A stretch of 64,000 nucleotides of DNA from Lewinellaceae bacterium (GCA_020636225.1 JACJYI010000007.1:82352-146351); one strand, 5' to 3'; numbered from the stretch's first letter, positions 17,421 through 41,154 are shown. The notes: generated from the letters alone by a model not told the origin. Translations and numbers: made by a program.

Positions 17421-17466
17421 TGTCGGGGTGACAGGATTTGAACCTGCGACCACACGCCCCCCAGAC
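17421..17466. repeat. attL: 46-bp direct repeat, a displaced copy of tRNA-Pro positions ~31-73 plus 2 nt
   Basis: tgtcggggtgacaggatttgaacctgcgaccacacgccccccagac is identical base for base to 41109-41154. The flanks diverge immediately on both sides. Confidence 0.9.
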
Positions 17467-17591
17467 AACAATTTTATACTTTTTGATATCTATCGATTTT
17501 TTCAACACATTCGTATATGACTGATTTTCTGCTATTTATAAGATTCGCTCATCATGGTTGCTTATCGAGAATTGTCGTTATTTTGCAGAAT

Positions 17592-17613
17592 TGTTTACAC
17601 CATGTTTACACCA
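17592..17613. repeat. Perfect tandem 11-mer TGTTTACACCA x2, 12 nt upstream of the integrase ATG (candidate arm-type / operator site)
   Basis: Read directly. A 14-nt identical string caccatgtttacac plus the variant tgcttacacc occurs at 41034-41059, just inside attR, in the same orientation. Confidence 0.6.
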
Positions 17614-17624
17614 GACGCGGAAAA

Positions 17625-18848
17625 ATGGCCTCTGCAAAACTCATTCGATACAAGTATAAGGTGCTCTCTGATGGCTCCTCCCCCATCATGGTTCAGGTCA
17701 TCCATAACAGGAAGATCGCCCGTTATGCCGTAGGATCCGATTACAAATGCACGGAGGAGCAATGGGATGATGCAGCCAGGGAGTTCACCAGAAGATTCTA
17801 TGGGTATAAGGAAAAGAATAAGGTGCTGAAAACGGTGGAGCTTCGGGCTTCCGAAATCCTGGACGACCTGATCAAATCAGGCAAACCCTTCACCTTCCAA
17901 TTGTTCGAAGAGCGATTCAGGTCCATCAGCCGGAATCCACCCACGGTCTACAAGTTCTTCGACATCCGAGTTTCCGAACTGACAGAGAAAGGCAAGGTCG
18001 GTAACGCCCGAGTCTATGCCGATATGAAGCGAGCCCTGATGAACTACTCCCCCAATCCGAATCTGATGTTTCCGGACATTGATTATGCCTTCCTGGACGG
18101 CTTCGAAACCCATCTGCTCAAAAGGAACTGTAGTGGTGGTGGCGTCCATAACTACATGCGCACCCTTAGAGCGTTGATCAATGAAGCAATCCGAAGACAA
18201 TTCCTCCCTGCTGAACTCTATCCATTCAAGAACCAGTTCAATCCCAAAGGCTACTCCCTGGCTCATCTCAAATCCAAAGCCAGTCCCAGGGCATTATCAT
18301 CCAAGGACCTGGAGAAGTTGAAAACCTTTAAGGTTGATCTACATCCCCACCTCAACTTTGCCTACAAAATCTTCATGTTCAGCTATTACAGCCGGGGCAT
18401 GAACTTCAAGGACATCGCCCAACTCCGAAAGGCCGACATCTATGACAATCGCCTGAACTATACACGTGCTAAGACAGGAGGAAACTTCACCATCAAAGTA
18501 TCGGCCAACCTCCAGGCCATCATCGATGAGTTCAATGACCCTGAAAGTGATTACATATTCCCAATTCTCTCCAGTCTTCACCAGACACCTCTCCAGATCA
18601 AATATCGAATCAGCAAGAAGCTCAAGGAAGTGAATGCGGGGTTGAAAGACATTTCAGACCTACTGGATATTGGTACAACTCTTACAACCTATGTAGCACG
18701 TCATACTTATGCCACCACTCTGAAGCGCCAATCGGTTGACATATCCAAGATCAGTCAGAGCCTGGGCCATGCGGATGTCATGACCACAAAGAATTACTTG
18801 GAAAAATTTGAACTCAGTGAAATAGATGAACTGGATGACCTTCTTTGA
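17625..18848 (+). CDS. Tyrosine recombinase / site-specific integrase (Bacteroidota type)
   Basis: 407 aa from MASAKLIRYKYKV. The C-terminal catalytic region has ARHTYATTL and LGHADVMTTKNYLE (the HxxR ... H ... Y pattern). It lies adjacent to attL. Confidence 0.85.
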   Translation: MASAKLIRYKYKVLSDGSSPIMVQVIHNRKIARYAVGSDYKCTEEQWDDAAREFTRRFYGYKEKNKVLKTVELRASEILDDLIKSGKPFTFQLFEERFRSISRNPPTVYKFFDIRVSELTEKGKVGNARVYADMKRALMNYSPNPNLMFPDIDYAFLDGFETHLLKRNCSGGGVHNYMRTLRALINEAIRRQFLPAELYPFKNQFNPKGYSLAHLKSKASPRALSSKDLEKLKTFKVDLHPHLNFAYKIFMFSYYSRGMNFKDIAQLRKADIYDNRLNYTRAKTGGNFTIKVSANLQAIIDEFNDPESDYIFPILSSLHQTPLQIKYRISKKLKEVNAGLKDISDLLDIGTTLTTYVARHTYATTLKRQSVDISKISQSLGHADVMTTKNYLEKFELSEIDELDDLL

Positions 18849-19413
18849 CCAGAGTGTCGTCAGATCAGGTCATTCGGATATATGCTTTCTAGGTGTGGGA
18901 GTCCCATATAGGCAAGATTATAGCACAACCTAGTAAAGGACTTGATCCTTCATCCAACGTTCAAGGTCCATCCATTTTGGAAGTTTCAGCTACTGGAGCC
19001 ATGTCGACAATAGCTACAAGATTCTACAAGGAGCCCCTAAATTGCTTCCGTGTACATCAATCTCAATGCTGAATTATTAAATAAGCAATTGGAGCCACTA
19101 CTACCTCATAATTGCCATTTTGTAAGGCAGCAGCATCAGTATGATGCTCCGACTGCACATGGATGTTTTGAAGATCGCTACTCATTTGCAACGGGTATAG
19201 AATGAAGGAGTTAACAATTGATTATCAAATTTTTACGCAGCACTTTTCCACCAGTCTTCAGATAGCTAAAAACTCCAGAAAACCTGCCATCCAATCTTTT
19301 TTCAACTTTTTCACCTCAAGGGGAACTTATTTGGCAGTTCAATGCTTATTTCAAACATAATGTTTTAACTAGTTGCTGGGAATACATGATATTAAGCAGC
19401 GTGGTAGATTTAT

Positions 19414-20586
19414 ATGGTTAAAAACAAACTCAACATCAAAGAAGTAACTCGTCACATAAAACACACGGTTGAACGGGAACTTTGGGCACGTGCTGCCGGA
19501 CGTTGCCAGTTCATCGGGTGCAATCGGCTACTCTACAAGTCTCCTTTAACCCAGGAGCGGGTAAACATTTCGGAGAAGGCTCACATCTATTCTTTCTCTC
19601 AAGATGGTCCAAGGGGATGGGGCCCGTTCCAAAAGAACCCTGAAAGCCTTAATGATGTCTGCAATCTGATGCTCATGTGTCATGACTGCCATAAGACTAT
19701 AGATCAGGATACAGACGGTTCCAAGTATTCTGGATCGCTGTTGCAGCAATGGAAAAAGGAACATGAACACCGAATTCTCATTGTAACTGGAATTGCAGTA
19801 ACCAGAAAGTCTCATGTGGTATTCTACGGAAGCAACATTGGTGAACAACGTTCTCCACTTCAGCATGAGGACGCCAAATCAGCGATATTTCTAGAACGCT
19901 TTCCGGTATCGGAAAACGCTATTTGCCTATCCATGTCATGCTCACATGAGGATAATACAGTAGGGTTCTGGGAAACAGAATCAGCTCATCTGAAGCGGGT
20001 CTTTGATCAAAAGGTTCTACCTGTGATTGAACATGACCCAATAAAGCATTTCTCATTGTTCGCCCTGGCCCCGATTCCATTGTTAATCCAGCTGGGGACA
20101 CTATTTACGGACAAAATTACCGTGGATACTTATCAGCCGATCCGGGAGCCTAAAGGCTGGCACTGGCAAAAATTCCCTGATGGTTTTGAATTCCTCATCA
20201 AAAAGCCTGAAAAGTATGATGCAGCCCCGGTACTGGTAATCTCATTGAGTGATAATATCAATCATGATAGGATCAAGACGGTCATGGGCGAAGAAGTTTC
20301 TGTATGGGAATTGACCGTACCAGAAGAACACATAGGCAACGACAATATCCGTAATCGTGCGCAACTGTCCATGATGCGTAAAATCATCCGAAAACTTATG
20401 GTCCTGATTAAGGATTCGCATGGATCTACAACTCCACTTTCCGTTTTCCCAGCAATGGCTGTTTCCTGTTCCATTGAAATGGGAAGAGCAAGAATGCCTA
20501 AGGCGGATATGCCTTGGATCATCTATGACCAGAACAACAAGGAAAAGAAGTTTATTAAAGCGATAACCATAGGAAACAGCCAATGA
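19414..20586 (+). CDS. cap5: CBASS effector: HNH endonuclease fused to a SAVED sensor domain (Cap5-like)
   Basis: The N-terminal HNH region reads EKAHIYSFSQDGPRGWG...NLMLMCHDCHKTIDQD. The C-terminal ~260 aa have SAVED-like features (HVVFYGSNIG..., FSLFALAPIPLLIQLGTLF). ATGA overlap with the next gene. Confidence 0.8.
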   Translation: MVKNKLNIKEVTRHIKHTVERELWARAAGRCQFIGCNRLLYKSPLTQERVNISEKAHIYSFSQDGPRGWGPFQKNPESLNDVCNLMLMCHDCHKTIDQDTDGSKYSGSLLQQWKKEHEHRILIVTGIAVTRKSHVVFYGSNIGEQRSPLQHEDAKSAIFLERFPVSENAICLSMSCSHEDNTVGFWETESAHLKRVFDQKVLPVIEHDPIKHFSLFALAPIPLLIQLGTLFTDKITVDTYQPIREPKGWHWQKFPDGFEFLIKKPEKYDAAPVLVISLSDNINHDRIKTVMGEEVSVWELTVPEEHIGNDNIRNRAQLSMMRKIIRKLMVLIKDSHGSTTPLSVFPAMAVSCSIEMGRARMPKADMPWIIYDQNNKEKKFIKAITIGNSQ

Positions 20587-21776
20587 TTACTAATGAACAA
20601 AAACAAGTTGTCATAGACAACATTGTCAAATTGCTGGAACTCCCTGATTCGGCCTATGACAAAGCCCGTAAAAGGTATGAGGATCTCGGGGAGTGGTTTG
20701 ACCGTAATGAATCAACCGTTTCTAGTAACAATCCGCATATTTTCCCACAGGGATCCTTCCGACTTGGGACAGCGATACGTCCACTTGATGAAAATGAAGA
20801 ATATGACCTTGATCTTGCTTGCAAGCTTCAGGATGGGATTTCCAAGGATAGTCATACCCAGGAAACCCTAAAAAACCTGATTGGCATTGAACTGGAAGCC
20901 TATCGGATAGCAAGAGGAATCAAAAGTGAACTTCAACCAAAGCATCGCTGCTGGCGTCTTGAATATCAGGATGACCTTAATTTTCACATGGATATTGTTC
21001 CATGTATTCCAGCAGATGAAAAAAGGCGTATGGCAATATTTGAGTCTATCCGGAGGACTGGATTGGACGAATTTGTGGCCGTGGCCGCGTCCCAGACTAC
21101 GATATCCATAACAGATGACAGGCACAAGGGCTTTCCGCATATATGCGGTGACTGGAACATTAGTAATCCAGAAGGATATGCCAAGTGGTTTGAATACCGA
21201 ATGAATCCACAGCAAACCAGAATCCTACTGGAAATGTCGCAGGTAGACAATGTGCCCTTGTTCAAAAAGAAAACGCCTTTGCAGCGGGCGATTCAGATTC
21301 TGAAGCGCCACCGTGACAACTGGAGCAAGGACAACCCGGAATCCAAGCCTATTTCAATCATTATCACAACTCTCGCTGCAAGGGCCTATAACGGTGAAAC
21401 AGATATTGTAGAGGCGCTTGGCAATGTATTAGAAAAAATGGGTGGTCTGGTAAACCCGAAAAAGCCAAGGGTGCCCAACCCTGTGGACCCGGATGAAGAC
21501 TTTGCCGACCGCTGGTACAGGCCGGATTGTCTGCATTTGCGATTGGAGGAACACTTCTTTTCCTGGCTTTTACAAGCAAATACAGATTTCAGGCATATTA
21601 CTTCTACGAATGATATTGAATTTCTCAGTGATCAACTCGAAGAGAAGTTTTCATTGCGAGTAAATAAGATGGAGCTTAGGGAACAACTGGGAATCAACGC
21701 TACTATCGGTGACATAATGACTCCCAAAACACACACGATTGACCGACAAGACTCGGCCAGACCATGGAAAAAGTAG
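20583..21776 (+). CDS. cGAS/DncV-like nucleotidyltransferase (CD-NTase, SMODS family)
   Basis: It has the PQGSFRLGTAIRP...EEYDLDLACKL motif (GS...[DE]xD Pol-beta NTase signature) and a third acidic residue in LNFHMDIVPCIP. The N-terminal helix pattern (VIDNIVKLLELPDSAYDKARKRYEDLGEWF) is typical of the family. Confidence 0.8.
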   Translation: MITNEQKQVVIDNIVKLLELPDSAYDKARKRYEDLGEWFDRNESTVSSNNPHIFPQGSFRLGTAIRPLDENEEYDLDLACKLQDGISKDSHTQETLKNLIGIELEAYRIARGIKSELQPKHRCWRLEYQDDLNFHMDIVPCIPADEKRRMAIFESIRRTGLDEFVAVAASQTTISITDDRHKGFPHICGDWNISNPEGYAKWFEYRMNPQQTRILLEMSQVDNVPLFKKKTPLQRAIQILKRHRDNWSKDNPESKPISIIITTLAARAYNGETDIVEALGNVLEKMGGLVNPKKPRVPNPVDPDEDFADRWYRPDCLHLRLEEHFFSWLLQANTDFRHITSTNDIEFLSDQLEEKFSLRVNKMELREQLGINATIGDIMTPKTHTIDRQDSARPWKK

Positions 21777-21780
21777 CTCA

Positions 21781-23609: not shown

Positions 23610-23933
23610 ATGAGCAAAATACTTGAAATGAAGCGAATTTTCAAACTGAAAGACAGCTTCGAATACGAGTTCACGGAGGTAAAAAACCCAAAATACAATG
23701 CCCTGGAAGCCGCATTGGCTGTGGCACAAGGTAGATTCTATCCAGAACAGGAAACCGTCATCGTCCGTAAACTGGTCAAAAGGAAAACCTCCCACATCCT
23801 CTACCGCATACGATGTGACTACTGTGGAGGGACAAGCACTTGGGTTGGACGTAAGGATGCCAAATTCTGCTCCGCAGGCTGTAGGAAAATGGCCTATAAT
23901 GAACGTAAGACCATGACCAACCATGGAGAATAG
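23610..23933 (+). CDS. Small Zn-ribbon protein, unknown function
   Basis: 107 aa with the CDYCGG...FCSAGCRKMAY four-Cys motif. Coding status is plausible but has no further support. Confidence 0.4.
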   Translation: MSKILEMKRIFKLKDSFEYEFTEVKNPKYNALEAALAVAQGRFYPEQETVIVRKLVKRKTSHILYRIRCDYCGGTSTWVGRKDAKFCSAGCRKMAYNERKTMTNHGE

Positions 23934-23978
23934 TACCCTTTATACATGCGAGCAAAAAAGCACCTGTCGGAACACGGC

Positions 23979-26405
23979 TCACTCCACCACCACCCTGGCC
24001 ACTTTGGCACCCCTGTTGTCCTCCGCATCCACCCGTAGGATATACATCCCTGAGGGAAGGTGCCCCAGGTCCAGATCAAGGGTATTGTTGGAGATCTGTC
24101 GCTCTATGACAACCACACCCTGAACATCCCGGACCGTCAATCGGCCACTTTCCGGTAGATCGTTGATATATACTATGCCGGATGTCGGATTGGGTGTCAC
24201 GACTAGTGGCTCAACTGGTACAGCAGGGATCAAACCACTGGTTTCGTCCTGGAAGATGGCGATAAACGCATCATATGCTCCGGAATTACTGGTTTTATTC
24301 CCATCAGGTGTAGAAATCGCATCCTTTGAGAAAGCTGCACCGGCTATGACAATTTGATCGTCACCAGATAGAGCGCAATCATCGATGCCATCACCATCGT
24401 CCCCTCCATAATATGTTGCCCACTGACGAGAACCGTCAGGACTGAACTTGCATAATAAGCCATCGGAAATGCCTTCCTTTTGGACGTCATATCCATCCGG
24501 ACTGGCAATATTATCCAGAGAAGACGTCCCTCCGGACAGATAAATGTCATTTGCAGTGTTGACCGCTAACCCTGTCCCGAAATCTGAGGATTGACCTCCG
24601 TAACATGTCCCCCAAAGAAAAACACCATTCGGTGAAAATTTGGCTAAAAAGGCGTCGGAAGAACCTCCTCCGTATTCCACTTGATGTGCGCCCTGGCTGA
24701 CAACGTAATCCTCTCTATCTGTCTCCCCAGTCACAATGACATTATTCAACATGTCGATTTCTATATCGTACGCTCTCGTATCATTGCCACCAAAATAAGT
24801 CGACCAAATTCGTTCGCCGTCCTTTGTAAACTTGAATATCAAGGCATTCTGTGAGCCATTGATATCTTCCTGGTGAGCGCCAGGAGAGGCTAAGATATTG
24901 TCAAAATCCCACCATGCTTCACCGCCAAACAAAATATTGCCATCATGATCAATTGTACAACAATGCCCCCTCTCAATAGTATATGGAACCCCAATGTAAG
25001 ATCCCCAATCTAATTCACCTGCAGCATCCAAAGCCATAATGAATGCATCAGTACCATCTCCACCATATTCAGGTTGGAAAGTTCCCTGGGTTGAAATCCC
25101 AACAGGTGAAGTAGTGCCGCCAACCAGAATAATCCTGCCACTATCATCAATGGAGCATCCGTTCACATAATCCTGTTCTGTTCCTCCGATATACGTACCC
25201 CAAACACGAACTCCATCCCCATTCAACTTGACTAAAAAACCGTCTTTCGAACCTCCAATATAGACAGGTTTTGTCCCATCAGGTGAGGCAATTCCTGTAG
25301 TTGATTCCGTTTCGCCTCCCAGGAACGTGTTTCCATCCACATCAATTTTACAGCTGTTGACTCCATCCTCCCCGGATCCGCCGATATAGGTTGCCCACGA
25401 CAGTTCACCATTGGCTAAATACTTGGCCACTACACCATCATATGTTCCTCCTCCATAGGACACCTGATGAGCGCCCACAGTAGCAATCATGCTGGTTGAT
25501 ACCGTTTCTCCGGCGGCAACGATATTCCCTTGTCCATCCACACTGGTTGACCTGAAAAAATCATTCTTACTCCCCCCAAAATACGTTCCATATAACCGCA
25601 CCGGTGGATCAATGATTAAGGGCAAAGTCGGATCGACCAGCCCGGCCAATTCAAACCGGACTATCTCGCCATCCACTACCCAATGCGAAGCCACTTCCTT
25701 ACCGTCCTGATGAGCATACACCGGCCCCTCGAGAATATCACCAAAGGGGGTGTGCATCACCAACTCACCACGGGTATTGATCGATAATTCGGCACCAGAT
25801 ATGGCCAAAGCAATCTGGCTATAATCAGCCCCAGGCTGAACCACAAAATCCGATTCAAGACCACCATATTTGCCCTGGTAGTATCGCAGGTCAATACCCA
25901 TATAGATGTCTTTCATGGTCACCGACTGCCAGGACCGGACGTTCAACGCTGGTTCAGCGCCAAGGGGTACATTATAGAAATGACTGACTGAACTTGAACG
26001 ACCGTCGGACACAACCTCCGCACGTTCGTTAGCTCCCAGGTAGTTCACATCCACCCGATAGATCGTGATGGGCTGCTCCAGGGCTTCTACATCAAGATCA
26101 TGCTTACTTCTCTTCATCTTACTCAACAGTTCTTTTTGTTGAAACCATCCAGGATACTGTACCATCTGGTAATGAATCCCTCCGGCTGTCAGGTGATAGG
26201 ACAACCCGTCCACCTCGCCATAGTACAACACATCTGGCCGGGGCATATCGTGTTGATCCCTCACTTGGCCTTTGTTCTCCAAGAAGAGGTCGAGCTGGAC
26301 TTTCTCGGGTGGTGAAAAGGCGAACAACGGAAGGCAACCGATGGCTATTGCGCTTATAATCAACATCTTACGCAATATCAATACCGAAGGGGATACAGAA
26401 CTCAT
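23979..26405 (-). CDS. Secreted SBBP-type beta-propeller repeat protein with T9SS C-terminal sorting domain
   Basis: It has repeated YIGGSGEDGVN...DGN..LGGET.S motifs. The C-terminus reads VVTPNPTSGIVYINDL...LPSGMYILRVDAEDNRGAKVARVVVE. There is an N-terminal signal peptide. Confidence 0.75.
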   Translation of the reverse strand: MSSVSPSVLILRKMLIISAIAIGCLPLFAFSPPEKVQLDLFLENKGQVRDQHDMPRPDVLYYGEVDGLSYHLTAGGIHYQMVQYPGWFQQKELLSKMKRSKHDLDVEALEQPITIYRVDVNYLGANERAEVVSDGRSSSVSHFYNVPLGAEPALNVRSWQSVTMKDIYMGIDLRYYQGKYGGLESDFVVQPGADYSQIALAISGAELSINTRGELVMHTPFGDILEGPVYAHQDGKEVASHWVVDGEIVRFELAGLVDPTLPLIIDPPVRLYGTYFGGSKNDFFRSTSVDGQGNIVAAGETVSTSMIATVGAHQVSYGGGTYDGVVAKYLANGELSWATYIGGSGEDGVNSCKIDVDGNTFLGGETESTTGIASPDGTKPVYIGGSKDGFLVKLNGDGVRVWGTYIGGTEQDYVNGCSIDDSGRIILVGGTTSPVGISTQGTFQPEYGGDGTDAFIMALDAAGELDWGSYIGVPYTIERGHCCTIDHDGNILFGGEAWWDFDNILASPGAHQEDINGSQNALIFKFTKDGERIWSTYFGGNDTRAYDIEIDMLNNVIVTGETDREDYVVSQGAHQVEYGGGSSDAFLAKFSPNGVFLWGTCYGGQSSDFGTGLAVNTANDIYLSGGTSSLDNIASPDGYDVQKEGISDGLLCKFSPDGSRQWATYYGGDDGDGIDDCALSGDDQIVIAGAAFSKDAISTPDGNKTSNSGAYDAFIAIFQDETSGLIPAVPVEPLVVTPNPTSGIVYINDLPESGRLTVRDVQGVVVIERQISNNTLDLDLGHLPSGMYILRVDAEDNRGAKVARVVVE

Positions 26406-26599
26406 GGTCGTATGAAATTTGAATGATTCAGGTTGGAGCAAGATAGCAAATCATGATGAATCCAGCGCCTAATTTTATATCGGTCGTAGATTTGTACTAC
26501 AAGTCTCAACAAAAGCATGTGACATCTCAAAGGAAAATACCAACGCAATGCAGACTAATTTTCATCCGCTAACTTAGCCCTTTCGACATCCGTGGACAG

Positions 26600-26646
26600 G
26601 GTGGCTCACTATGGACCGAAATAGGTGGGTCAGTATGACCGAAATA
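26600..26646. repeat. Imperfect tandem ~24-mer (ggtggctcactatggaccgaaata / ggtgggtcagtatgaccgaaata)
   Basis: Read directly. It abuts the truncated end of the primase remnant. Confidence 0.7.
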
Positions 26647-26647
26647 A

Positions 26648-26819
26648 TCATTCCATCTTCTGGATCATCTCGATGGTGTCGCCGCTTCCTGCTTTGCAGT
26701 TGCTACTAAAACAAGTCCATGTATTTGTTTTGGGATAGATCTGCATTGATGGGGTCTTGTCATCAATGATTGAGTACGGTTTGGATGCTGAGAGTAGCTT
26801 TGATGTCGCTGATTTCCAT
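26648..26819 (-). pseudogene. Remnant of a CHC2 zinc-finger DNA primase gene (mobile-element type)
   Basis: My translation gives MEISDIKATLSIQTVLNH* and then, in another frame, DDKTPSMQIYPKTNTWTCFSSNCKAGSGDTIEMIQKME*. The CPFH half of the CHC2 finger and the whole toprim/catalytic body are missing. Confidence 0.7.
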
Positions 26820-26929
26820 ATCAAATGTTAAAGTCAAAAAATATTTTATTGGAACTATCAGACACAAAAGTAGATTATAATTCCAAAACTACAAAGAACT
26901 ATCAGCTCTATTTACGTCTTTTAATTACG

Positions 26930-26937
26930 TATCTTTG
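26930..26937 (+). promoter_or_regulatory. Candidate Bacteroidota -7 promoter box (TAnnTTTG) for the XRE gene
   Basis: tatctttg lies 39 nt upstream of the ATG at 26976. I found no convincing -33 element. Confidence 0.3.
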
Positions 26938-26975
26938 CTGTATCACTGTATTTTTAGACACTTAATGGGCTTATA

Positions 26976-27745: not shown

Positions 27746-27754
27746 ATTTGAAAA

Positions 27755-30097: not shown

Positions 30098-30342
30098 TGC
30101 AACTGGGTGATAGTGGCTAAATTCATTCATATGATACTCCATTAATTAAGATCATTAAATATTCCATAAAACAGTCAAAATAAACAGGAATCCATAGTGC
30201 AGCTTCAACGACTTCAAGTAATCTTAATAAGGTTTTTCACCAAAACTAATTCCATCTACGCTTCCATTCAGATAAACGATTCAGGAGAAAACAAAGTCAC
30301 TTTCAATAGTGCTTCAAATTATCCATGTGTAAATATTTCAAC

Positions 30343-31404: not shown

Positions 31405-31416
31405 CTTCGATATTGT

Positions 31417-33627: not shown

Positions 33628-33671
33628 TTTACTTCTTTCTTAACGGTGAAGGTTTCCCGAACGGCTTGCCG

Positions 33672-36600
33672 TTAATGTTGCCAGGGCAGGGTTACATCAA
33701 ACGAACCAAATCCCTTGTTTGTCTTCTGTTTGGGTGAATACCAGAATCGAATTTTTGTATCAGAGTTCACTTCAACAGAGAGGCTTTGTGGCAACCGGAT
33801 GGTGTTATACAGATCTTGACTTTCAGAAGTTGTAAATAGATCCTTCAAACAAGGCGGCAATAATGAATATGGTTGTCCATGGGCATAGTCGGCTAGTGGC
33901 CCATGCCCCTGCTCCCCACAGCCGGTTTGCACATAATCAATATAGTTCATTCTGTCAAACTGGACCTCCATCGCATTCGTCAATAATGGCAGATCTTCCT
34001 GCAAATACCAGGGAATGGTGTTGACCAATACCAACTGGTCGTACCGTTGATTCTCACCATTTATTTCAACAGTTCCTGCTGAATCCTGCATGGCAAAGAA
34101 TACACTTTCGCTATAATAGTCATTTATCTCCGCGCTGAAGAAAAGTACATCAAACGTCAAATCAGCACTCAACACAAACTGACCCGGTGATCTATTGGCA
34201 ATAAAATAGCGGTATGGAGCAAGCCATGTTGTAGAGGCATCATCCACAACTTTCCAGTTGAAAAACGGGGGCAGGCCATTGTACCCATGGATTTCATAAT
34301 CATCAAATCCTTCAAACCCGGACAGGCGGTAGGCCACTGGTTGGCCAGTCAGGATCGTGTCGAAAGACATTGAATTGACCATCGCCTGCATTTTCTCTGT
34401 CCACGTATCATGCAGGCTGGTTCTGAACGGAATGGAAAACAACACCCGTTCGGTCTTCAAGGTATCGTCAAAATCGGTATTGGCCATACACTTGACAAAC
34501 CCATTCATCGAACCACCCGGCAATCCCTGAGGCCAGGATCCTACCACCGGATTGATGAGCTCACGTGATGTGCCATTTCCGGAAAATCCACCATTGCCTT
34601 CACCACCAAAGACAGGAGGTTCAGGAGGGTCATCCACTTTGAATCCCTGAAGGATATCCAATGTATATTGGGTTTCCGGCTCAGTCACCGACCAGTCCAC
34701 CTCAAAATTAACCTGGTTGCTCTGGCAATCATAAAATACAGGTCCTTCGGTGATGACTTCCTCTCCTTGCTTCAGGCGATACATGCTACGCGCATTTACT
34801 GGTACTTTAGCAAACAAGTAGTATTGGCCCGATGCCAGTTTTACATAGGCATGCTTGGCATCGGCATCCCCAGGCAAGAAATATTGCTGTCCCTCATGAG
34901 GATAACTTTCTGCCACATTGTCCGGGAGAATGATATCTGGCAGTTCTCCGGTTGAGAAACTGCTGATCAGCGTGTCACGATCCTGTAGCTCACCATTCAC
35001 CTCCACATACGCATACGCTTTGATCTGGTAATTAAAATCCGGACGTAAAAACTCCTTAAACTTGACGGCTATTTCCATTCCCCCTTCCTGCCTGGACCAA
35101 CTGAATTTTTCATTTCCAGCGCTGGAAATAAAATCAATACGCTCGATCTTGATGAGGTATATGGATGTATCCTGACCCTCAACACGCTCTATGGGTGTAT
35201 CCACCGGATAATTCATGTAGATCACCGGGCTGACGTTCACAGCGACATCCTGAGATCCATGAGCAGGATCCATATAATCAAAGACAACCAGATCCATTAC
35301 ATAGGCCGAAGAATCAGGATTGAGCAATTCACATTTTGTCCCGAATTCTACATTGAAGCGAGTTGAACCTTTGATGATACCCAGTATATTGTAATTCGCC
35401 TTGACAATCCCCTGTGCCCATACGGGATTGGGCAACTGGGCACGCAATAAGATACCAGCTTGTATGTCGGCTATGGTGCCTTTTCGTTCCTTAAAAAGGA
35501 ATTTGAACTTGTACCCCAGGTGAGCGGCCAGGTAGGCATACATCTGCCCCGTGGCATACCAACCATTGATGCCCGGCTTTTCGTAGTTATGCGCACACAA
35601 TGCATCATACTGCATCATGGCCAGATCATACCCCACTGTCAGATTGGCGTAGAACGTAAAGATCCACACCTTGGTGGTATCGGCATTCAGGGTAAATTTC
35701 GACCCATGCATGAATCCGCCACCTTTGGCCATTTGGGAGTTGAGTGTAAACGTTGGTGGTACATCAAAAAAGTCAGATAGCTCACCCTCCAATTCAGCTA
35801 CTTTTGGAAGTCTGGAGCCGAGGCAGAAATAGGTAGTAAAAGTAGCGTCTATACCTGGCACGATACTGACCCGCATACCTCCAGGTTGGTTAGGCTCACC
35901 GACCCACAAATACCAATCTTTTGGGCCTATTTTAAATCGCACATCACTAAGCTTGCCAACATCCGAAGAATCAGCTATTCCTATCAACACATTTCCAAGA
36001 GACATGTAGGACTTGAAGTTGGCATCAAATGTATTTTCAGAGCTATCGTATGATAAATTAAAAAATGCCCTGATTGGTCCTTCTGCACACATACCTTGAT
36101 CCAATGGGTCGCCACCTGACTCATCATAGGTGGAAGGGGCATCAATATTCAAGGCAGCCATACATTGGAAATTGCCAAGAATGTTCAGTGTAAATCCCCC
36201 TGTTTCTTCAAAGATGTTCATGGCAAATGAGGCATTCCCATTCAATGCTTCCTCACTTTCTGCCGTCATGAATGCCATGGCCAGTTTCAATCCCCAGGAA
36301 TGATTGAATGGCGTATAGGTAACCCCTGAAAGACTTAGCCCCAGTCCACGATTCTTTATCATGTCGGTGGTCACCGAATCCTGAGACATAGCCGAAGACA
36401 ATTGCACATTGTCATGTCCACTTGAAGCCATGTTGTACCAGAATCCTCCTCCAAAACCGTTCATTACCAGGGGTGGAAACAGGGGGATCCCACCCGGAAT
36501 GGTGACCATCACATCCACCATGCCATACTTGTATCCTTCATTATGCTTACCGAACATGCCCATGGCCTGTACAGCACCTTCAAATTTGGCAAACTTGACA

Positions 36601-39600
36601 GCTACAGCTCCCTGGAAACCTGTTCCATACTGGCTATCATTTTGATACTTGATCAATGAGCCTTTGATATAATCGACTCCCGTGCAGCTGCCTTCAATGG
36701 TGATCTGGTAGAAATTGAACTTTTCATATTTCCACTTGTGATGAATGGAGCTGGTGTCAATGTATCCCTGAATACCAAAATCAAAGGCCACCTTCAGGTC
36801 AACCCCACTGGTTGTCAGCCCCATGTCGGTCAGGAAAACCGCTTCAATGGCGCCCGGTTGGTTCGGGGCCTCCCGTAGTCCGATCCTGTCAAAATTGAGT
36901 TCAAATCCCAGGTAGTCAATTCCTTTTAATGGAAAGGACCAATATCCGATGTTGCGGATCGCCTTTCCTTTATTGGACAGGATCACCTGATCAAAATGGA
37001 TATCTTCAATGGCCAGGGGGTCGTCGCCATCCTTCTGGATATCCAGAGTTCCGTTGAGGGTAGCAATTACTTCAAATCCACTCCCTCTGTCGAACATGGA
37101 GATGGAGGTATTCGGGTACAAGGTTACATCTGCATAGATAGCTGGAGCCCTCAGGGCACTATTCACTTCCAGGTCAAACTGGAATCGTCCGTATGAATCC
37201 AAAAATGCCAGGTAACTGAAACAATCCATCGGCTTGATGGTATCCGACTCATTCTCTACCGATTTAAACAGAGGCACATGGAGGTATCCCTGCATATTCC
37301 CTTTGTGGAAACGGTTTTCCAGCACATGGATGGCCAATGTATCAATGGAGAAGCCCCATCCCGAACAGGAACCCTGATCCAAAGGCAACAGATTTCCGGC
37401 ATTGATCTGTCCACTGGCCCCATAATCATCGAAGACAAAATGCTGTAGCCCCAAGGTGATGTTACCTGAGTCCTTCCTGGCCATATCCTGGGGCAAGGTC
37501 ACATTCAATTCTTCAAAATATACCCCTTGCCAGGTGGTCTCACCCAGCATCGGATGACTGTATCCATCCGGGTAAATGATGCCTTCCGGGTTCAAGGCGT
37601 CACTGAAATCCAGCCAAACATTGTCCAACCGAAATTTGTACTCTTCTTTTTTGGTGACCGCAAAAGGGTCCACATCAATCTGGACAAGAATATCTGACCA
37701 GGAATCGAAATCACCTACAATGGATGCGGTGACATAACCGTCACTCAGTGGCTCCAATGTGACTGAATCCAGGGGGGTCAAATACTCCCGACAAAACTCG
37801 ATGTTGGCTTCAACAGAAAGCCCTTCAAAACCCGTGCAACCCCAATTGATAAATGTTTGGCCATTCTCTCCGACCAGGGTCAGCCGCATGGCTTTGCCCA
37901 ATGGAATGGGGGGTGAATTGTTCAGGAGCGTTATTTTTCCGGGCACTTCAAGCCCCCCCGGATTGAATGCAATGTCTTCCGCACCAAAGAGGACACGTTT
38001 CCCGGATTGCACCTCCAGAATAAACCAGGCATCCAGAGTGGCTCCCTGAGGGTTGACGACAATGGAATCCAGATAGATGGTATAGGTCAGACTGCCGATC
38101 TCCCGATTCAATTCCAGAGGCTGGCCAAAAACTTCACTTCCGCCTGAGACAGGCATGATTTCAGCCTTGAGTCCCGTCTTTTTCAGTTGGTTTATCTTAT
38201 CGTCTATATCGTCACCTGATACAGACGCATAGGGCCTGGCTTGCTCAAATAAGTTATCTACCCAATCCGGGGCTGCACTACACCCGACTCCGGAGGGGAA
38301 GCTGGTCTGCAAGACTTCCGGTTGGAATGGTCTATGCAGGACTCGTTCCAATGGAGAACTTGAACGGGGCTCCCGGAAGGCAGAAACAACATACTTTCCA
38401 AAACGCAATTGAAAATCTTCAACCAATTTGGCGTACACCAGGTTTTTTACAAAAAGCTTGAGTTTCTGGGCAGTACCGATATGTTCGGCCAACTCAGCTG
38501 AATCCATGGACATGATATACGGCTGAATGAACGCTTGAAAAGGCGCCAATGCATCATCCTGGTTGGTTTGAAGCAGCTGAATGATGGAGTCCAGCAAATG
38601 CTCCATGTTCAGGAGAGTGTGCAGGTATTTGTCGCAATGGTACAGATCAAAATGGTGTTGTTCCAGTGCCATAATCTGTTCATCCCTGCCGGAAAAGTTG
38701 CTGTACTTCTGAGGCTCGCGTACAAAATGCTGATGCAACCCCTCCTGGAAATACTCCCCGTTCTGACCAAACAGGAAAACGGTGTCCAGGCCTTTGGCGA
38801 CGACAATATCCTCCATGTCATCCCGGATATTCCCGCAATTACCCCGATATACCCCAATCAGGCTGTCATTGAGCCAGTCGAACTGTTCGATGCTCCAAAT
38901 GATTGCTGAATCCACTTGGGTTTCATGGGCACTCCAGAATTTTACTCCTTCATCAGTAGGATTCCCTCCGGATGGAATCAACCAGTAATAGGGAGGGCTG
39001 GCCTGAGGGTTACATGGATTACCCAGTGAATCCACTCCAGCCTGGCTGCATCCGTTGGGATTGTAAATGGTTCCAGTTTCCACATGGATTCCATTGGCAT
39101 TAAATCCATTCGGATCAAAATTAGGATTAAAGGGCATCCCCTCCTCCCAACCGGGGTATGGCGGAATCTTCTGATACAACCCACTTGAATCAAAACCAAA
39201 TGAATTCAACCCGGTAATGGGATCAAAGGCATAGGGATCAGGTGAAGGTGGGATGCAACTGAAGGTTGCCGGTGCCGGTTGGACCATCAAATTCTGCATC
39301 CTGGTTCTGGCGTTTGCATCATTTTTGACCTTGATGTCTCCTGATTCGACTATGAAATCAGTGTTCACCAAAATGGATGAAAACTCGACACCTACACGCT
39401 TATTTCCAAAAGGAACGGCCATGGTCCCGGTGCCATTGTACACACCATTCCCTTGATGGAAACGGGTTTTGACAATAACCGGAAACCCGTACGCCAGAAT
39501 CACATCGTTTACCTGGAGACCCGTGTACGGGCTGCCGCTGACCACTGCGGTGTCAGGAGTGGTACCACAAAAGATGTCCTGAAAGGTCGTATCCCCCAGT

Positions 39601-40583
39601 GTTTGAATGGTGACATCCGGAGGCATGTTCTCACAGAAGTCGTCAATGTCAAAGCGGGAGCTACCGAACGAAGCTTGAACGGAGATGTCATAATAGGTCC
39701 CGGATTGCAGCGGAATCATCCGTACATGTGAACTGTCTTGCCAGGTTATCTCCGTCCATTGGTCACTTCCCTGAACTCTGTACCGTGCTCTGTACCAGGG
39801 GCCATTGGCATAAAACCCGGGTGCAGGTCCACTGACTGTAACCGTGACACCATCTTCGGTGATATCGGATACAGCAAAGGAATAGGAAAGACTTGAGCAA
39901 TCCACTGACCGACTTCCGTCATCCAGATCCGGTATCGGAACGTGAACCCAATCCGAGTATAACAATACACCATTTTGATACCGGCACAACTTCCGAATCA
40001 CCATGGATTGGAGTGCTTTGATTCTGTCCCGCTCAAAGCTGTAGGTGGATGTTGGATCACAATCAATCAATGCGGTTTGGGCGGTCTCATGCTCTCCGGT
40101 CAGTTTGATCTGAAATCCTTCAGCATGTTGTGGAGCAGGGTCATGCCAGTTCAACTGGATTAAATCTTCATCAATAACATCCCAATAAATACCAGAGGGT
40201 CGTTCACACTCCGGCCAAAAGGAAAAGGGGACAGATTGATAGACAGGATTGCCGGTCAATGCTGAAACAAGGACAAATGTGTATTGATCTCCTCCGGGAA
40301 AGATGGCTGAAGGATGCGGAATTTGGACGGAGGTCACGGGCCAGGACATCCATTTGGTCCAGAGTACTTTTTTCTCATCATCCAAGATATGGATAATGGC
40401 TGCAGATTCCGAGATATGCAGATTGGGCAAATTCAACACCAGTACATCCTGATCGACCAGATAGGTGGGTGAGCTGACCGGGTCAACGAACGCACAGGAC
40501 GACAGTGATTCTGCCATCGCTGTATGGAGGGGGAATAGGGTCAAGACAACCAACAAGGCTTTCCATGGGTGTAGAAAACTCAT
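33672..40583 (-). CDS. Giant secreted protein (about 2303 aa), no recognisable catalytic domain
   Basis: It is an uninterrupted 6.9-kb ORF in AT-rich DNA, so it is certainly coding. It has a signal peptide (MSFLHPWKALLVVLTLFPLHTAMA) and two FN3-like modules near the N-terminus. The rest looks beta-rich and is unassigned. Start at the ATG at 40583 (the track uses the TTG at 40610). Confidence 0.5.
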   Translation of the reverse strand: MSFLHPWKALLVVLTLFPLHTAMAESLSSCAFVDPVSSPTYLVDQDVLVLNLPNLHISESAAIIHILDDEKKVLWTKWMSWPVTSVQIPHPSAIFPGGDQYTFVLVSALTGNPVYQSVPFSFWPECERPSGIYWDVIDEDLIQLNWHDPAPQHAEGFQIKLTGEHETAQTALIDCDPTSTYSFERDRIKALQSMVIRKLCRYQNGVLLYSDWVHVPIPDLDDGSRSVDCSSLSYSFAVSDITEDGVTVTVSGPAPGFYANGPWYRARYRVQGSDQWTEITWQDSSHVRMIPLQSGTYYDISVQASFGSSRFDIDDFCENMPPDVTIQTLGDTTFQDIFCGTTPDTAVVSGSPYTGLQVNDVILAYGFPVIVKTRFHQGNGVYNGTGTMAVPFGNKRVGVEFSSILVNTDFIVESGDIKVKNDANARTRMQNLMVQPAPATFSCIPPSPDPYAFDPITGLNSFGFDSSGLYQKIPPYPGWEEGMPFNPNFDPNGFNANGIHVETGTIYNPNGCSQAGVDSLGNPCNPQASPPYYWLIPSGGNPTDEGVKFWSAHETQVDSAIIWSIEQFDWLNDSLIGVYRGNCGNIRDDMEDIVVAKGLDTVFLFGQNGEYFQEGLHQHFVREPQKYSNFSGRDEQIMALEQHHFDLYHCDKYLHTLLNMEHLLDSIIQLLQTNQDDALAPFQAFIQPYIMSMDSAELAEHIGTAQKLKLFVKNLVYAKLVEDFQLRFGKYVVSAFREPRSSSPLERVLHRPFQPEVLQTSFPSGVGCSAAPDWVDNLFEQARPYASVSGDDIDDKINQLKKTGLKAEIMPVSGGSEVFGQPLELNREIGSLTYTIYLDSIVVNPQGATLDAWFILEVQSGKRVLFGAEDIAFNPGGLEVPGKITLLNNSPPIPLGKAMRLTLVGENGQTFINWGCTGFEGLSVEANIEFCREYLTPLDSVTLEPLSDGYVTASIVGDFDSWSDILVQIDVDPFAVTKKEEYKFRLDNVWLDFSDALNPEGIIYPDGYSHPMLGETTWQGVYFEELNVTLPQDMARKDSGNITLGLQHFVFDDYGASGQINAGNLLPLDQGSCSGWGFSIDTLAIHVLENRFHKGNMQGYLHVPLFKSVENESDTIKPMDCFSYLAFLDSYGRFQFDLEVNSALRAPAIYADVTLYPNTSISMFDRGSGFEVIATLNGTLDIQKDGDDPLAIEDIHFDQVILSNKGKAIRNIGYWSFPLKGIDYLGFELNFDRIGLREAPNQPGAIEAVFLTDMGLTTSGVDLKVAFDFGIQGYIDTSSIHHKWKYEKFNFYQITIEGSCTGVDYIKGSLIKYQNDSQYGTGFQGAVAVKFAKFEGAVQAMGMFGKHNEGYKYGMVDVMVTIPGGIPLFPPLVMNGFGGGFWYNMASSGHDNVQLSSAMSQDSVTTDMIKNRGLGLSLSGVTYTPFNHSWGLKLAMAFMTAESEEALNGNASFAMNIFEETGGFTLNILGNFQCMAALNIDAPSTYDESGGDPLDQGMCAEGPIRAFFNLSYDSSENTFDANFKSYMSLGNVLIGIADSSDVGKLSDVRFKIGPKDWYLWVGEPNQPGGMRVSIVPGIDATFTTYFCLGSRLPKVAELEGELSDFFDVPPTFTLNSQMAKGGGFMHGSKFTLNADTTKVWIFTFYANLTVGYDLAMMQYDALCAHNYEKPGINGWYATGQMYAYLAAHLGYKFKFLFKERKGTIADIQAGILLRAQLPNPVWAQGIVKANYNILGIIKGSTRFNVEFGTKCELLNPDSSAYVMDLVVFDYMDPAHGSQDVAVNVSPVIYMNYPVDTPIERVEGQDTSIYLIKIERIDFISSAGNEKFSWSRQEGGMEIAVKFKEFLRPDFNYQIKAYAYVEVNGELQDRDTLISSFSTGELPDIILPDNVAESYPHEGQQYFLPGDADAKHAYVKLASGQYYLFAKVPVNARSMYRLKQGEEVITEGPVFYDCQSNQVNFEVDWSVTEPETQYTLDILQGFKVDDPPEPPVFGGEGNGGFSGNGTSRELINPVVGSWPQGLPGGSMNGFVKCMANTDFDDTLKTERVLFSIPFRTSLHDTWTEKMQAMVNSMSFDTILTGQPVAYRLSGFEGFDDYEIHGYNGLPPFFNWKVVDDASTTWLAPYRYFIANRSPGQFVLSADLTFDVLFFSAEINDYYSESVFFAMQDSAGTVEINGENQRYDQLVLVNTIPWYLQEDLPLLTNAMEVQFDRMNYIDYVQTGCGEQGHGPLADYAHGQPYSLLPPCLKDLFTTSESQDLYNTIRLPQSLSVEVNSDTKIRFWYSPKQKTNKGFGSFDVTLPWQH

Positions 40584-41033
40584 CTGCAAACTGTTGAAAT
40601 GATAATACAATCCTATATCGACATGACCGATAAATCCCTTGAGGACAAGAGTTCAATCAGTCATTCCTGTATTTCTGGAATGACGTTTGTGGCACCAGAA
40701 ACAAATTTGCCTCTTTCGGCAAGGTTCATTTCAAAATAAATCTGTCGGTTGCGAAGTAAATATAGAATTTGAATTGAATATGTAGTACATGTTCACAATA
40801 AAAACACAAAAGTTAATACTGACATTACACATATGTGCAAAACGCGAATCCCGGGTAGATGACCGGACAATGAATCGGCTATAACAGGGTATGAGTGGCC
40901 GATCAATTCAATGGTATCCCATCGAAAATGCATACACATCAGGTGACAAACCAATTAATAACGCCTAATGAGGGAATTCTAAACTTGTACAATATGGCGA
41001 AATCGGTCAATGTAGTGCCCAGAGAATACGAAA

Positions 41034-41059
41034 CACCATGTTTACACTATGCTTACACC
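41034..41059. repeat. Arm-type repeat pair inside attR (caccatgtttacac, tgcttacacc)
   Basis: It shares a 14-nt identity with the tandem 11-mers at 17592-17613, in the same orientation, and lies 49-75 nt from the att core. Confidence 0.55.
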
Positions 41060-41060
41060 G

Positions 41061-41098
41061 GAAAAGAAAAAAGGAGTTGCAATTTCTCGCAACTCCTT
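41061..41098 (-). terminator. Rho-independent terminator for the tRNA-Val/tRNA-Pro transcript, supplied by the island
   Basis: On the minus strand, 12 nt after the tRNA-Pro 3' end, a perfect 10-bp stem aaggagttgc/gcaactcctt forms with an 8-nt loop. It is followed by ttttttcttttcc. Confidence 0.7.
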
Positions 41099-41108
41099 GA
41101 TAATCAGA

Positions 41109-41154
41109 TGTCGGGGTGACAGGATTTGAACCTGCGACCACACGCCCCCCAGAC
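41109..41154. repeat. attR: 46-bp direct repeat inside intact tRNA-Pro
   Basis: Identical to 17421-17466. Confidence 0.9.

Follow-up and report, generated by a model that had tools for sequence, protein, structure and literature searches.

We analyzed a 64,000-nucleotide stretch of the genome of a Lewinellaceae bacterium (GCA_020636225.1 JACJYI010000007.1:82352-146351), hereafter called the window, with positions counted from its first letter. Between positions 17421 and 41154, two identical 46-bp sequences enclose 23.7 kb of DNA with a low guanine-cytosine (GC) content, and one of the two copies lies inside an intact tRNA-Pro(GGG) gene. The interval carries a tyrosine integrase, an operon of the CBASS type (antiphage signalling by cyclic oligonucleotides), a candidate excisionase, and a block of genes for secreted or surface-type proteins that includes a predicted toxin (Table 1). 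We consider it very probable that this is an integrative genomic island of an uncultured Saprospiraceae bacterium (Bacteroidota), inserted in tRNA-Pro by its own tyrosine integrase.

The locus and its boundaries

The genes on either side of the interval are of Bacteroidota type and encode a TonB-dependent receptor, a phytase, a GSDH/SprB protein and reprolysin proteins with a sorting tail for type IX secretion (T9SS). Exact-protein look-ups with the toxin, the integrase and the flanking phytase among assembled metagenome contigs returned about 30 contigs of the same strain, from many metagenome samples and 99.76-100% identical to the window; the exact integrase protein is present on at least 23 metagenome contigs. 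Among the samples in which the strain occurs are ERZ28655346, ERZ27309182, SRR776449 and SRR7638773. Gene calls in these same-strain contigs are used below and in Table 1.

Table 1. Features of the island and of its tRNA target, with positions in the window
Feature	Position	Strand	Basis
Original chromosomal tRNA-Pro terminator hairpin, TTTTG tail	17384-17411	-	9-bp stem GGCTGCCGA/TCGGCAGCC
Orphan 46-bp copy of tRNA-Pro 3' part	17421-17466	-	Exact repeat of 41109-41154; no tRNA called
Tandem 11-bp repeats TTGTTTACACC ATGTTTACACC, candidate arm-type sites	17591-17612	+	Motif scan
Tyrosine integrase, 407 aa; Arm-DNA-bind_5, Phage_int_SAM_5, Phage_integrase	17625-18848	+	Pfam
Gene-free spacer, 565 bp, integrase to CBASS operon, GC 0.396	18849-19413	.	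No gene called in any same-strain contig
CBASS effector, HNH endonuclease-SAVED fusion (Cap5-like)	19414-20586	+	Pfam SAVED E=1.6e-41, HNH_2 E=7.7e-7; PADLOC PDLC00739 E=3e-140, full length
CBASS CD-NTase (cGAS/DncV-like cyclase), 397 aa	20583-21776	+	PADLOC PDLC00780 E=6e-120; Pfam DncV-like_NTFase, SMODS
CBASS E2-only ubiquitin-conjugating-like protein, 223 aa	21781-22452	+	PADLOC E2 PDLC00859 E=1.7e-87
Excisionase-family helix-turn-helix (HTH) protein, candidate directionality factor	22947/22974-23312	+	HTH_17 E=1.4e-14; TIGR01764 'excise' E=1e-12; PHROG 66 excisionase
107-aa backbone open reading frame (ORF)	23610-23933	+	Called in same-strain and sister-island contigs; homologue of 120-aa gene after HTH_17 in L062
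Secreted beta-propeller-repeat protein, DUF7948, T9SS type A sorting domain	23979-26405	-	DUF7948 E=6e-44; Por_Secre_tail E=4.6e-9; TIGR04183
Primase remnant, 58-codon CHC2 zinc-ribbon fragment, ended by stop	26648-26824	-	Zn_ribbon_DnaG E=2.7e-5; PHROG 360 DNA primase E=4e-4
Cro/CI-type HTH regulator, 112 aa	26976-27314	+	HTH_3 E=2.4e-20; variable block, not in L067
147-aa ORF, candidate immunity protein	27302-27745	-	Starts 10 bp after toxin gene; position, strand
791-aa toxin, signal peptide, C-terminal EndoU RNase domain	27755-30130	-	EndoU_bacteria E=1.1e-7, 32.7 bits vs 25.3 cut-off
353-aa protein, weak T9SS C-terminal sorting domain	30343-31404	-	Por_Secre_tail E=1.5e-5, below cut-off
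736-aa protein, string of fn3-like domains	31417-33627	-	Pfam fn3
Giant secreted protein, ~2,300 aa, family without characterisation	33672-40583	-	No family match
Second tandem 11-bp pair ATGTTTACACT ATGCTTACACC, candidate arm-type sites	41038-41059	+	Motif scan
Island-borne intrinsic terminator, now ends tRNA-Val/tRNA-Pro transcript	41071-41098	-	12-bp stem, then TTTTCTTTTC
46-bp copy inside intact tRNA-Pro; tRNA-proximal junction	41109-41154	-	Repeat match, ARAGORN
Intact tRNA-Pro(GGG), integration target	41110-41184	-	ARAGORN; Rfam tRNA 60.7 bits
tRNA-Val(GAC), next to tRNA-Pro	41197-41274	-	ARAGORN, Rfam

The 46-mer TGTCGGGGTGACAGGATTTGAACCTGCGACCACACGCCCCCCAGAC occurs exactly twice in the window. 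No further copy is found at up to three mismatches, none is expected by chance (0 in 100 shuffles), and no other long direct repeat bounds the region. The repeat search thus reproduces the perfect repeat that the original prediction, made from the sequence of the window, had placed at the two ends, and the count does not agree with a dispersed repeat, which that prediction had named as a finding that would speak against it. The right copy extends from the last 2 nt of the 5' strand of the anticodon stem through the anticodon loop and the rest of the tRNA to its 3' end, plus one nucleotide; in tRNA orientation, the repeat starts 2 nt before the loop (GT, then the loop CTGGGGG, then GCGTG...). 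The left copy, described beforehand as an orphan fragment, forms the tRNA-distal, integrase-side junction and corresponds to the displaced original 3' part of the gene. A search of the whole window with Rfam returned nothing but tRNA-Pro and tRNA-Val.

Base composition changes at the repeats, as had also been predicted. GC content falls from 0.589 in the left flank to 0.446 between the repeats (17467-41108) and rises to 0.579 in the right flank, the tetranucleotide distance to the flanks is raised 3- to 5-fold inside the island, and both the windowed GC and the tetranucleotide profile break at the island ends. The most AT-rich part is a block at 26482-30342, with a GC content of 0.366. We searched the island for a decayed internal copy of the attachment (att) sequence and found none, and we therefore treat it as a single island, not as a tandem array.

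The two ends also differ in the terminator that follows the tRNA sequence. Next to the orphan copy lies a hairpin with stem halves at 17389-17397 and 17403-17411, followed by TTTTG on the tRNA strand; a simple terminator scan did not call it. This hairpin, which the original prediction had taken for the tRNA terminator, is found directly 3' of tRNA-Pro in the four genomes with an empty site described below (L001, L002, L004, L005), and it is for this reason that we identify it as the original one, displaced by the island and now 23.7 kb from the tRNA. At the intact tRNA, transcription would now end at a strong island-borne terminator, with a 12-bp stem and a T run; the same hairpin follows tRNA-Pro in L003, a relative with an occupied site.

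Empty and occupied sites in related genomes

Relatives of the locus were sought with the GSDH protein, whose gene adjoins the tRNAs, in a scan against 185,579 species genomes. The closest relatives (76-87% identity) are encoded in Saprospiraceae/Lewinellaceae metagenome-assembled genomes. The order GSDH, tRNA-Val, tRNA-Pro is kept in five of these (L001-L005), each with one copy of the 46-mer. The 46-bp 3' part of tRNA-Pro is identical in all five, and the 30-nt 5' part, compared by eye, is the same.

Four of the five genomes (L001, L002, L004 and L005) have an empty attB. In these, AACAGCAAAGGCTGCCGACGAAGTCGGCAGCC... comes directly after tRNA-Pro (L001 and L004 show minor variants), and the window has this hairpin sequence next to its orphan 46-mer, from position 17420 downwards. 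The flanks of the island are thus joined through one 46-mer, which is the empty site that the original prediction had proposed to look for in sister strains. In the fifth genome (L003, contig JAIPBE010000017.1) the site is occupied: tRNA-Pro is followed by TCTGATTATCAAGGAGTTGCGA..., the same as the island end in the window, and past this junction 9.4 kb align at 75.6% identity to window positions 40827-31495. This sister island shares with the window the island-end sequence, the terminator and the arm repeats described below, and its GC content is about 0.10 lower than that of its own flanks. The course of the L003 island can be followed further on another contig, L067, to which it is 97% identical. 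Taken with the four empty sites, this occupied relative upholds the proposal of a tyrosine-integrase island in the 3' part of tRNA-Pro, with the tRNA regenerated by island DNA. We found no relative with the gene content of the island at host-like composition, another finding that would have spoken against it.

Two more contigs, L060 and L061, encode an integrase 89% identical to that of the window, located 158-175 bp from an orphan 46-mer. The flank of L060 is 95.5% identical to that of the empty L001, so that occupied and empty states exist within one lineage; on the evidence of these flanks, the L060/L001 pair shows a close relative of the island to have been gained or lost recently. The orphan-fragment geometry seen in L060 and L061 is repeated in the more distant L065 and L066, where the integrase adjoins an orphan 3' fragment of its own host's tRNA-Pro(GGG), with the tRNA-Pro-like sequence of that host. 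In all five loci where this can be checked (window, L060, L061, L065, L066), the integrase is distal to the intact tRNA.

These comparisons decide against a first alternative, in which the two 46-mers are a chance or dispersed pair and the low-GC region is ancestral, having been deleted in the other genomes. There are two copies only where none is expected by chance, four independent genomes join the flanks precisely through one copy, the integrase is 158 bp from one of the copies, and composition breaks at the island ends. We regard this alternative as refuted by the 46-mer count and the four empty sites, and give it practically no credence.

In L001, the closest of the empty-site genomes, about 9 kb of low-GC (0.35-0.45), poorly conserved sequence (12270-21300) separates the attB flank from the phytase gene; 260 bp of it match the beginning of the island DUF7948 gene together with sequence upstream of it (window 26204-26464). 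The locus seems to vary generally on this side of the tRNA.

Recombination module

The integrase has 956 homologues, typically of about 401-416 aa. An ORF starting at 17517 would be longer, but the close homologues are all about 407 aa and cover 92% of it, and we therefore place the start at 17625. Residues R257, K283, R359, H382 and Y391 are invariant in an alignment that reaches down to 35% identity. The integrase, which had been described as intact, thus has the length of its homologues and catalytic residues in invariant columns.

Two tandem pairs of an 11-bp repeat lie just inside the island ends. The left pair lies 125 bp inward of the left core, with 13 bp between it and the start of the integrase gene, and the right pair, in the same orientation, is 50 bp inside the right core and is kept at the same place in L003. 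The consensus ATGTTTACACY, with one mismatch allowed, has six matches in the window versus 1.25 expected, and four of the six form the two tandem pairs. The repeats are conserved upstream of the integrase in L059-L062, and a variant, TGTTTTAAC, is found in L063, L065 and L066. In a circular form, the pairs would flank the core at 50 bp on one side and 125 bp on the other. They are likely to be arm-type sites for the N-terminal arm-binding domain of the integrase.

An Xis-like gene, also announced by the original prediction, is present in the form of the HTH_17/TIGR01764 protein, which is likely, from its family, to be the directionality factor. Its counterpart in L062 is 57% identical over 70 aa (tblastx), and in L063 and L065 the integrase is likewise followed by HTH_17 genes. 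In L067, an IS3-type transposase (HTH_Tnp_1; 18380-18939) is located beyond the HTH_17 gene, toward the position that the E2 gene has in the window.

From these elements we propose the following course of integration. The attP of a circular form would have recombined with a chromosomal attB consisting of the 3' 45 nt of tRNA-Pro(GGG), with the island integrase as the catalyst. Because the identity block starts 2 nt before the anticodon loop, strand exchange would most likely take place in the anticodon stem-loop. The island would have supplied a perfect replacement for the tRNA 3' part together with a new terminator, pushing the original 3' part and its terminator 23.7 kb away; the arm-site pairs would be bound by the N-terminal domain of the integrase, and the HTH protein would set the direction. 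In tRNA orientation, the predicted empty attB reads ...GTAGAGTACAC, then the 46-mer (GTCTGGGGGGCGTG...CACCCCGACA), then AACCGCAAAGGCTGCCGACG, and the predicted attP circle junction reads ...AAGTATAAAATTGTT, then the 46-mer, then TCTGATTATCAAGGAGTTGCGAG.

One junction from a distant relative bears on the crossover position. Positions 1-45 of L062 read, by eye, as part of a tRNA-Leu(CAG), namely its anticodon stem-loop and 3' side; here too the boundary is 1-2 nt before the loop. With an integrase 54% identical to that of the window, L062 suggests that the relatives of this integrase may keep the crossover position while switching tRNA targets.

The backbone family and the primase remnant

Dedicated scans with the integrase yielded, among metagenome contigs, two distant loci only. 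Homologous loci at 50-56% integrase identity have in common an integrase, one or more variable genes, an HTH_17 gene, small ORFs and replication genes. The variable genes are a type IIG restriction-modification enzyme and a T5orf172 protein in L062, followed by a VapE-like primase, and a methyltransferase, an AAA_15/DUF4276 pair and a ResIII nuclease in L063. L065 and L066 have AAA_25 and Zn_ribbon_16/DUF6371 primase genes and a type III-like restriction-modification system. Among closer relatives, the CBASS operon of the window recurs in L059 (integrase 93% identical), with 87.8% nucleotide identity, and L060 has a different gene after the integrase. The backbone that the window shares with L062 consists of the HTH_17 gene and the 107/120-aa ORF, which has no family match, and ends at 23933.

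We may thus describe the family layout as integrase, variable defence cargo, HTH gene and primase/helicase, with a replication module that in the window would have been cut to a zinc-finger stump. The 58-codon fragment is the only trace of this module in the island, as against intact VapE-like or primase genes in L062 and L065. It had been read as a primase remnant in the original prediction, and the stop-ended CHC2 fragment answers to that description; its DnaG zinc-ribbon score (24.3 bits) is just under the 24.9 cut-off. The lack of mob/tra genes noted at the same time holds as well: scans of the main non-overlapping island ORFs and of small ORFs revealed no relaxase, mobilisation or transfer domain.

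An origin as a degraded prophage or phage satellite has some points in its favor. The integrase, HTH proteins and primase fragment match PHROG integrase, regulator/excisionase and primase families, the relatives carry VapE-like or DnaB-like and primase genes as many satellites do, and defence cargo next to an integrase recalls the hotspots of P4-like satellites. However, no capsid, terminase, portal, tail or lysis domain was detected in any island ORF scanned, and the island has no nucleotide match among known phages (50,697 records) or plasmids. Its integrase is at most 31% identical to any phage-borne integrase and at most 32% to any in the phage and plasmid collections, and a scan of viral contigs with the integrase returned no relative. 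A phage origin is thus very unlikely, and we retain the reading of an integrative island.

An E2-CBASS operon next to the integrase

The island carries two payloads, an E2-CBASS next to the integrase and a 17-kb secreted/surface block with a swappable EndoU cassette. The original prediction had not named this cargo, which adds to it the CBASS, the EndoU toxin with its likely immunity gene, the T9SS proteins and the giant protein.

The CBASS operon consists of three genes, with no E1 or JAB partner. In the translation of the CD-NTase, QGSF, DLDL and HMDIV correspond to the GS motif, the DxD motif and the third Asp. The E2 protein, called as 223 aa in same-strain contigs, has a visible Cys-containing motif, FHVNSDGSLCLG, and PADLOC models of E1-E2 proteins score far lower and match its E2 part only. 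With near full-length PADLOC matches for three of the three genes, the operon is, as judged from its sequence, a complete E2-type CBASS. Its predicted role is abortive-infection defence against phage, in which a cyclic nucleotide would activate the effector. The 565-bp spacer upstream of the operon is included in a 5,035-nt gap-free alignment with L059 (87.8% identity overall) and has no match in Rfam; this AT-rich sequence might hold a CBASS promoter or regulator.

The class of E2-CBASS (type II short) has been described, with Serratia CdnG-E2 (PMC12948482). Like the systems of that class, the island operon encodes a nuclease effector that bears a SAVED sensor, together with a long CD-NTase (397 aa) and an E2 standing on its own. 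It differs in that the effector gene comes first, and in its Saprospiraceae host.

The surface-protein and toxin block

The remainder of the island holds four genes whose products are of secreted or surface type; two of these products have T9SS sorting tails, and another is the protein of about 2,300 residues. In the order of minus-strand transcription we find the giant protein, the 736-aa fn3 protein, the 353-aa protein, the EndoU toxin and the 147-aa ORF; further along lie the Cro/CI-type HTH gene, the primase stump and the DUF7948 protein, whose gene converges with the end of the backbone at 23933.

The EndoU domain occupies residues 681-790 of the toxin, with hydrophobic segments near residues 505-560. 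The toxin has a single non-self relative (39% identity) among 5.8 billion proteins. The 147-aa ORF that follows it matches no family in Pfam, NCBIfam, PADLOC or PHROGs; gene calls include it in most of the same-strain contigs that span it, and it is co-variable with the toxin. By its position it is likely to be the immunity gene of the EndoU toxin, and the toxin/immunity cassette is probably used against competing bacteria.

L067 is collinear with the window on both sides of this cassette, and there unrelated genes of 709 and 371 aa replace the EndoU toxin, the 147-aa ORF and the HTH_3 gene. The exchange coincides with the AT-rich block, from which the original prediction had rightly concluded that the island is mosaic; comparison with the sister island identifies this block as a swapped cassette. 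We also observed that the gene next after that of the 353-aa T9SS-tail protein varies among loci: EndoU in the window, CdiA_C-like in L071 (E=1e-4), and unassigned in L067 and L068. Each is then followed by a different small gene, and the slot (26482-30342 in the window, 10443-14115 in L067, 13539-16632 in L071) looks like one of toxin/immunity exchange. At the four loci, the N-termini of the proteins in the slot are only 12-25% identical, with a weak F[KR]VY..G.Y motif. The label 'polymorphic toxin' is likely to apply to the EndoU cassette, short of proven because these N-termini are faintly alike and the toxin has one non-self homologue.

Upstream of the slot, the 353-aa protein is kept in L067 (69%), L068 (41%) and L071 (31.5%), and the 736-aa protein is 91% identical in the sister island. 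An AlphaFold2 model of the latter (pLDDT 84.5) has an N-terminal helix followed by about seven beta-sandwich domains. We considered a likeness to the Aureispira grappling-hook protein, which ranks 28th in a Foldseek search among generic fn3 arrays, and rejected it as showing no specific relationship. A search of PDB sequences gave no match for the EndoU toxin or the giant protein, and fn3 repeats only for the 736-aa protein.

The giant protein likewise has no match in Pfam, NCBIfam or PADLOC; in L071 it corresponds to two adjacent genes (997 and 1,236 aa). Its C-terminal module spans about 900 residues (aa 1073-2107; window 34290-37394). The C-terminal half has 1,678 representative relatives at E<=1e-3, of which 777 reach E<=1e-30, and the module is always C-terminal in these, within proteins of 1.2-5.4 thousand residues. 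Long beta-hairpins dominate an AlphaFold2 model of this half (pLDDT 78, pTM 0.49). Foldseek relates the model to large outer-membrane barrels at E-values down to 8e-7, with TM-scores of only 0.08-0.17; we take this modeled resemblance as a weak hint, not as an assignment.

The giant and fn3 genes also cluster with SprB/T9SS-tail proteins in the chromosomes of Chitinophaga (L070) and a Lewinellaceae species (L071), the latter cluster including a homologue of the 353-aa protein. A comparable context has been reported for the TANFOR toxins of Bacteroidetes, where the gene of a large protein is located near Fn3, SprB and T9SS-tail proteins, and where the next gene is sometimes a variable toxin, EndoU being among those reported, followed by an immunity gene (PMC7073777). 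The neighborhood of the giant protein is alike in its Fn3 and T9SS-tail genes and in the variable toxin next door. Membership in the TANFOR class was rejected: neither the giant protein, nor the fn3 protein, nor the toxins have a match to TIGR02542, even at E<=10 (NCBIfam release 20, assuming that it includes this model). The giant protein of the island belongs to a separate family without annotation. We may also hypothesize, as a rather unlikely reading, that the giant/fn3/T9SS-tail/toxin locus is an undescribed Bacteroidota locus for toxin export or delivery, distinct from TANFOR and carried between species on a tRNA-Pro integrase island. Its parts would be a secreted giant protein, its C-terminal half weakly like LptD, the FimD usher and the T9SS translocon SprA in the model, the fn3-string protein, the T9SS-tail protein and the toxin/immunity exchange position.

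The occurrence of this cluster on chromosomes raises the possibility of a composite, in which a small NBU-like element would have captured, or fused with, a 17-kb chromosomal surface/toxin block and lost its replication module, the true backbone being the left 6.5 kb only. The backbone does end at 23933, converging with the DUF7948 gene; what relatives at 50-56% integrase identity have in common with it is limited to the integrase, the HTH_17 gene and the 107/120-aa ORF, after which they have primase/helicase genes; and the giant/fn3/353 cluster lies outside any recognizable island in the Chitinophaga and Lewinellaceae chromosomes. However, the whole 23.7 kb is bounded by att repeats, absent from the empty sites and low in GC throughout, there is no internal att remnant at any fusion point, and the same composite is present in the L003/L067 lineage, which implies that it moves or persists as one unit. 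We give such a fusion something short of an even chance; it is in any case compatible with integration of the whole 23.7 kb as one island.

Present mobility and age of the island

Several observations weigh against an island that was brought in, and could still be carried on, by its own integrase. The left junction is crossed by seven same-strain contigs (L082, L084, L085, L088, L092, L093, L097), and all seven are integrated. Neither an attP junction nor an empty site at strain level is seen among the approximately 30 assembled contigs. Within the integrase, the His of the HxxR box is replaced by Tyr (Y356); this replacement is invariant across the family and is probably tolerated, given that invariance. 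The candidate Xis gene is 4 kb away from that of the integrase, and family membership suggests its role. With no replication, relaxase or transfer genes left, the island would depend on a helper to spread horizontally. Finally, between the window and the L003 lineage, the giant (74%), 353-aa (69%) and DUF7948 (65%) proteins are about as divergent as four flanking proteins (68-78%), and long residence with repeated precise loss is possible.

In a second scenario, the island came in by integration and has since become a fixed, immobile remnant, kept for its useful cargo (CBASS, toxin/immunity, surface proteins). The seven integrated junctions, the 99.76-100% identity of the island in same-strain contigs, the 58-codon primase stump and the failure to find relaxase or transfer genes all fit with it, as does the divergence of several cargo proteins to about the extent of flanking genes between host lineages; the toxin/immunity pair would, moreover, penalize loss of the island. 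On the other hand, the 46-bp repeats are still perfect, the arm repeats are conserved, and the integrase has kept its full length and the invariant catalytic residues; its identity to the sister-island integrase is 93%, versus 68-78% for the flanks. A close relative of the island is both present and absent within a lineage with about 95% identical flanks, and rare excision products are seldom captured by assemblies. We consider a fixed remnant possible but doubtful.

As to the contigs themselves, assemblies are a weak test of rare excision, so that absence says little; several other same-strain contigs start or break within the 46-mer, as assemblies usually do at repeats. That the island may still excise, as the original prediction suggested, is no more than plausible.

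In the comparison with the L003/L067/L059 lineage, protein identity is 93% for the integrase and 91% for the fn3 protein, and CBASS genes are about 80-87% identical in tblastx segments. The recombination genes and some cargo genes are thus more conserved than the flanks, and the surface proteins are not, which fits with transfer between lineages after their split, combined with fast-evolving surface genes.

Other features of the left flank

The TonB-dependent receptor on the phytase side (11994-14779) is split into two ORFs with a 4-nt overlap, one (11994-13442) with Plug and CarboxypepD_reg domains and one (13439-14779) with the beta-barrel. Since every same-strain metagenome contig has the same split (474 and 446 aa), an isolated sequencing error does not account for it; a frameshift that became fixed and a genuine pair of genes are both possible readings.

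From the phytase gene to the island (16069-17420), 1.35 kb of repeat-rich sequence has no gene called in any same-strain contig. It contains a direct repeat of 183 nt (16074-16256 and 16761-16943, 93%), part of which recurs as a third copy at 11784-11871, as well as runs of GACCGAG-like heptamers and nested palindromes. A hairpin module at 17260-17371 is present in four tandem copies downstream of tRNA-Pro in L005 (12151-12747).

Comparison with known systems

As a mobile element, the island is of an ordinary, well-understood, textbook kind, and its newest part is the uncharacterised giant-protein/toxin gene cluster. In the Islander survey (Hudson, Lau and Williams 2015), a 3' fragment is used by 3,760 of the 3,919 islands and 2,083 carry an attP centred on the anticodon; islands that combine a displaced 3' fragment with such an attP form the commonest class (PMC4383910). 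The features by which Islander recognizes an island are found here as follows: an intact tDNA, with its displaced 3' fragment downstream of it in the same orientation; a tyrosine integrase (17625-18848), of neither Xer nor integron type, between the two; and an interval that is absent from L001, L002, L004 and L005, L003 and L060/L061 being occupied. The identity block starts at the anticodon loop, as in Islander islands. The differences are an uncultured Saprospiraceae host and, in this island, an integrase distal to the intact tRNA.

Among Bacteroidota, integrative and mobilizable elements (IMEs) include NBU1 (tRNA-Leu), NBU2 (tRNA-Ser) and Tn6031, a 13-kb element of Sphingobacterium at the 3' end of a tRNA-Pro gene (PMC5704250). 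Compared by description, these have in common with the island their phylum, a tyrosine integrase acting at a tRNA 3' end and a small HTH candidate for directionality, and Tn6031 and the island are both in a tRNA-Pro gene. Of the features of NBU-type IMEs, the tRNA 3'-end target is thus present. The primase-type backbone gene, which in such elements is one of the accessory genes for excision, is represented by the 58-codon fragment only (it is intact in L062 and L065). Neither a MobP relaxase nor an oriT, by which a helper conjugative element mobilizes these IMEs, was found in the island, although an oriT is not recognizable by sequence alone. Because it has no relaxase, the island falls outside the IME definition. 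It also differs in its cargo, made up of phage defence and toxin/surface proteins, not antibiotic resistance.

The value of the locus is documentary in the first place, as a precisely bounded island with matching empty and occupied sites in uncultured Saprospiraceae. It illustrates an integrase family whose defence cargo varies between islands, CBASS here and restriction-modification in relatives, and it places on a mobile island a giant/fn3/T9SS-tail cluster with a swappable toxin that is widespread in public data without annotation.

For the mechanism, the nearest experimentally proven parallel is the 10K island of Riemerella anatipestifer, where the integrase alone mediates precise integration and excision at a 53-bp att site in tRNA-Arg (PMC6764341). 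Likened by description, both are Bacteroidota islands in a tRNA gene, whereas the 10K island uses another tRNA, is smaller and has other cargo. The Riemerella island has been used as an integration tool, and the attP/integrase pair described here may be a candidate for the same use in Saprospiraceae and related Bacteroidota.

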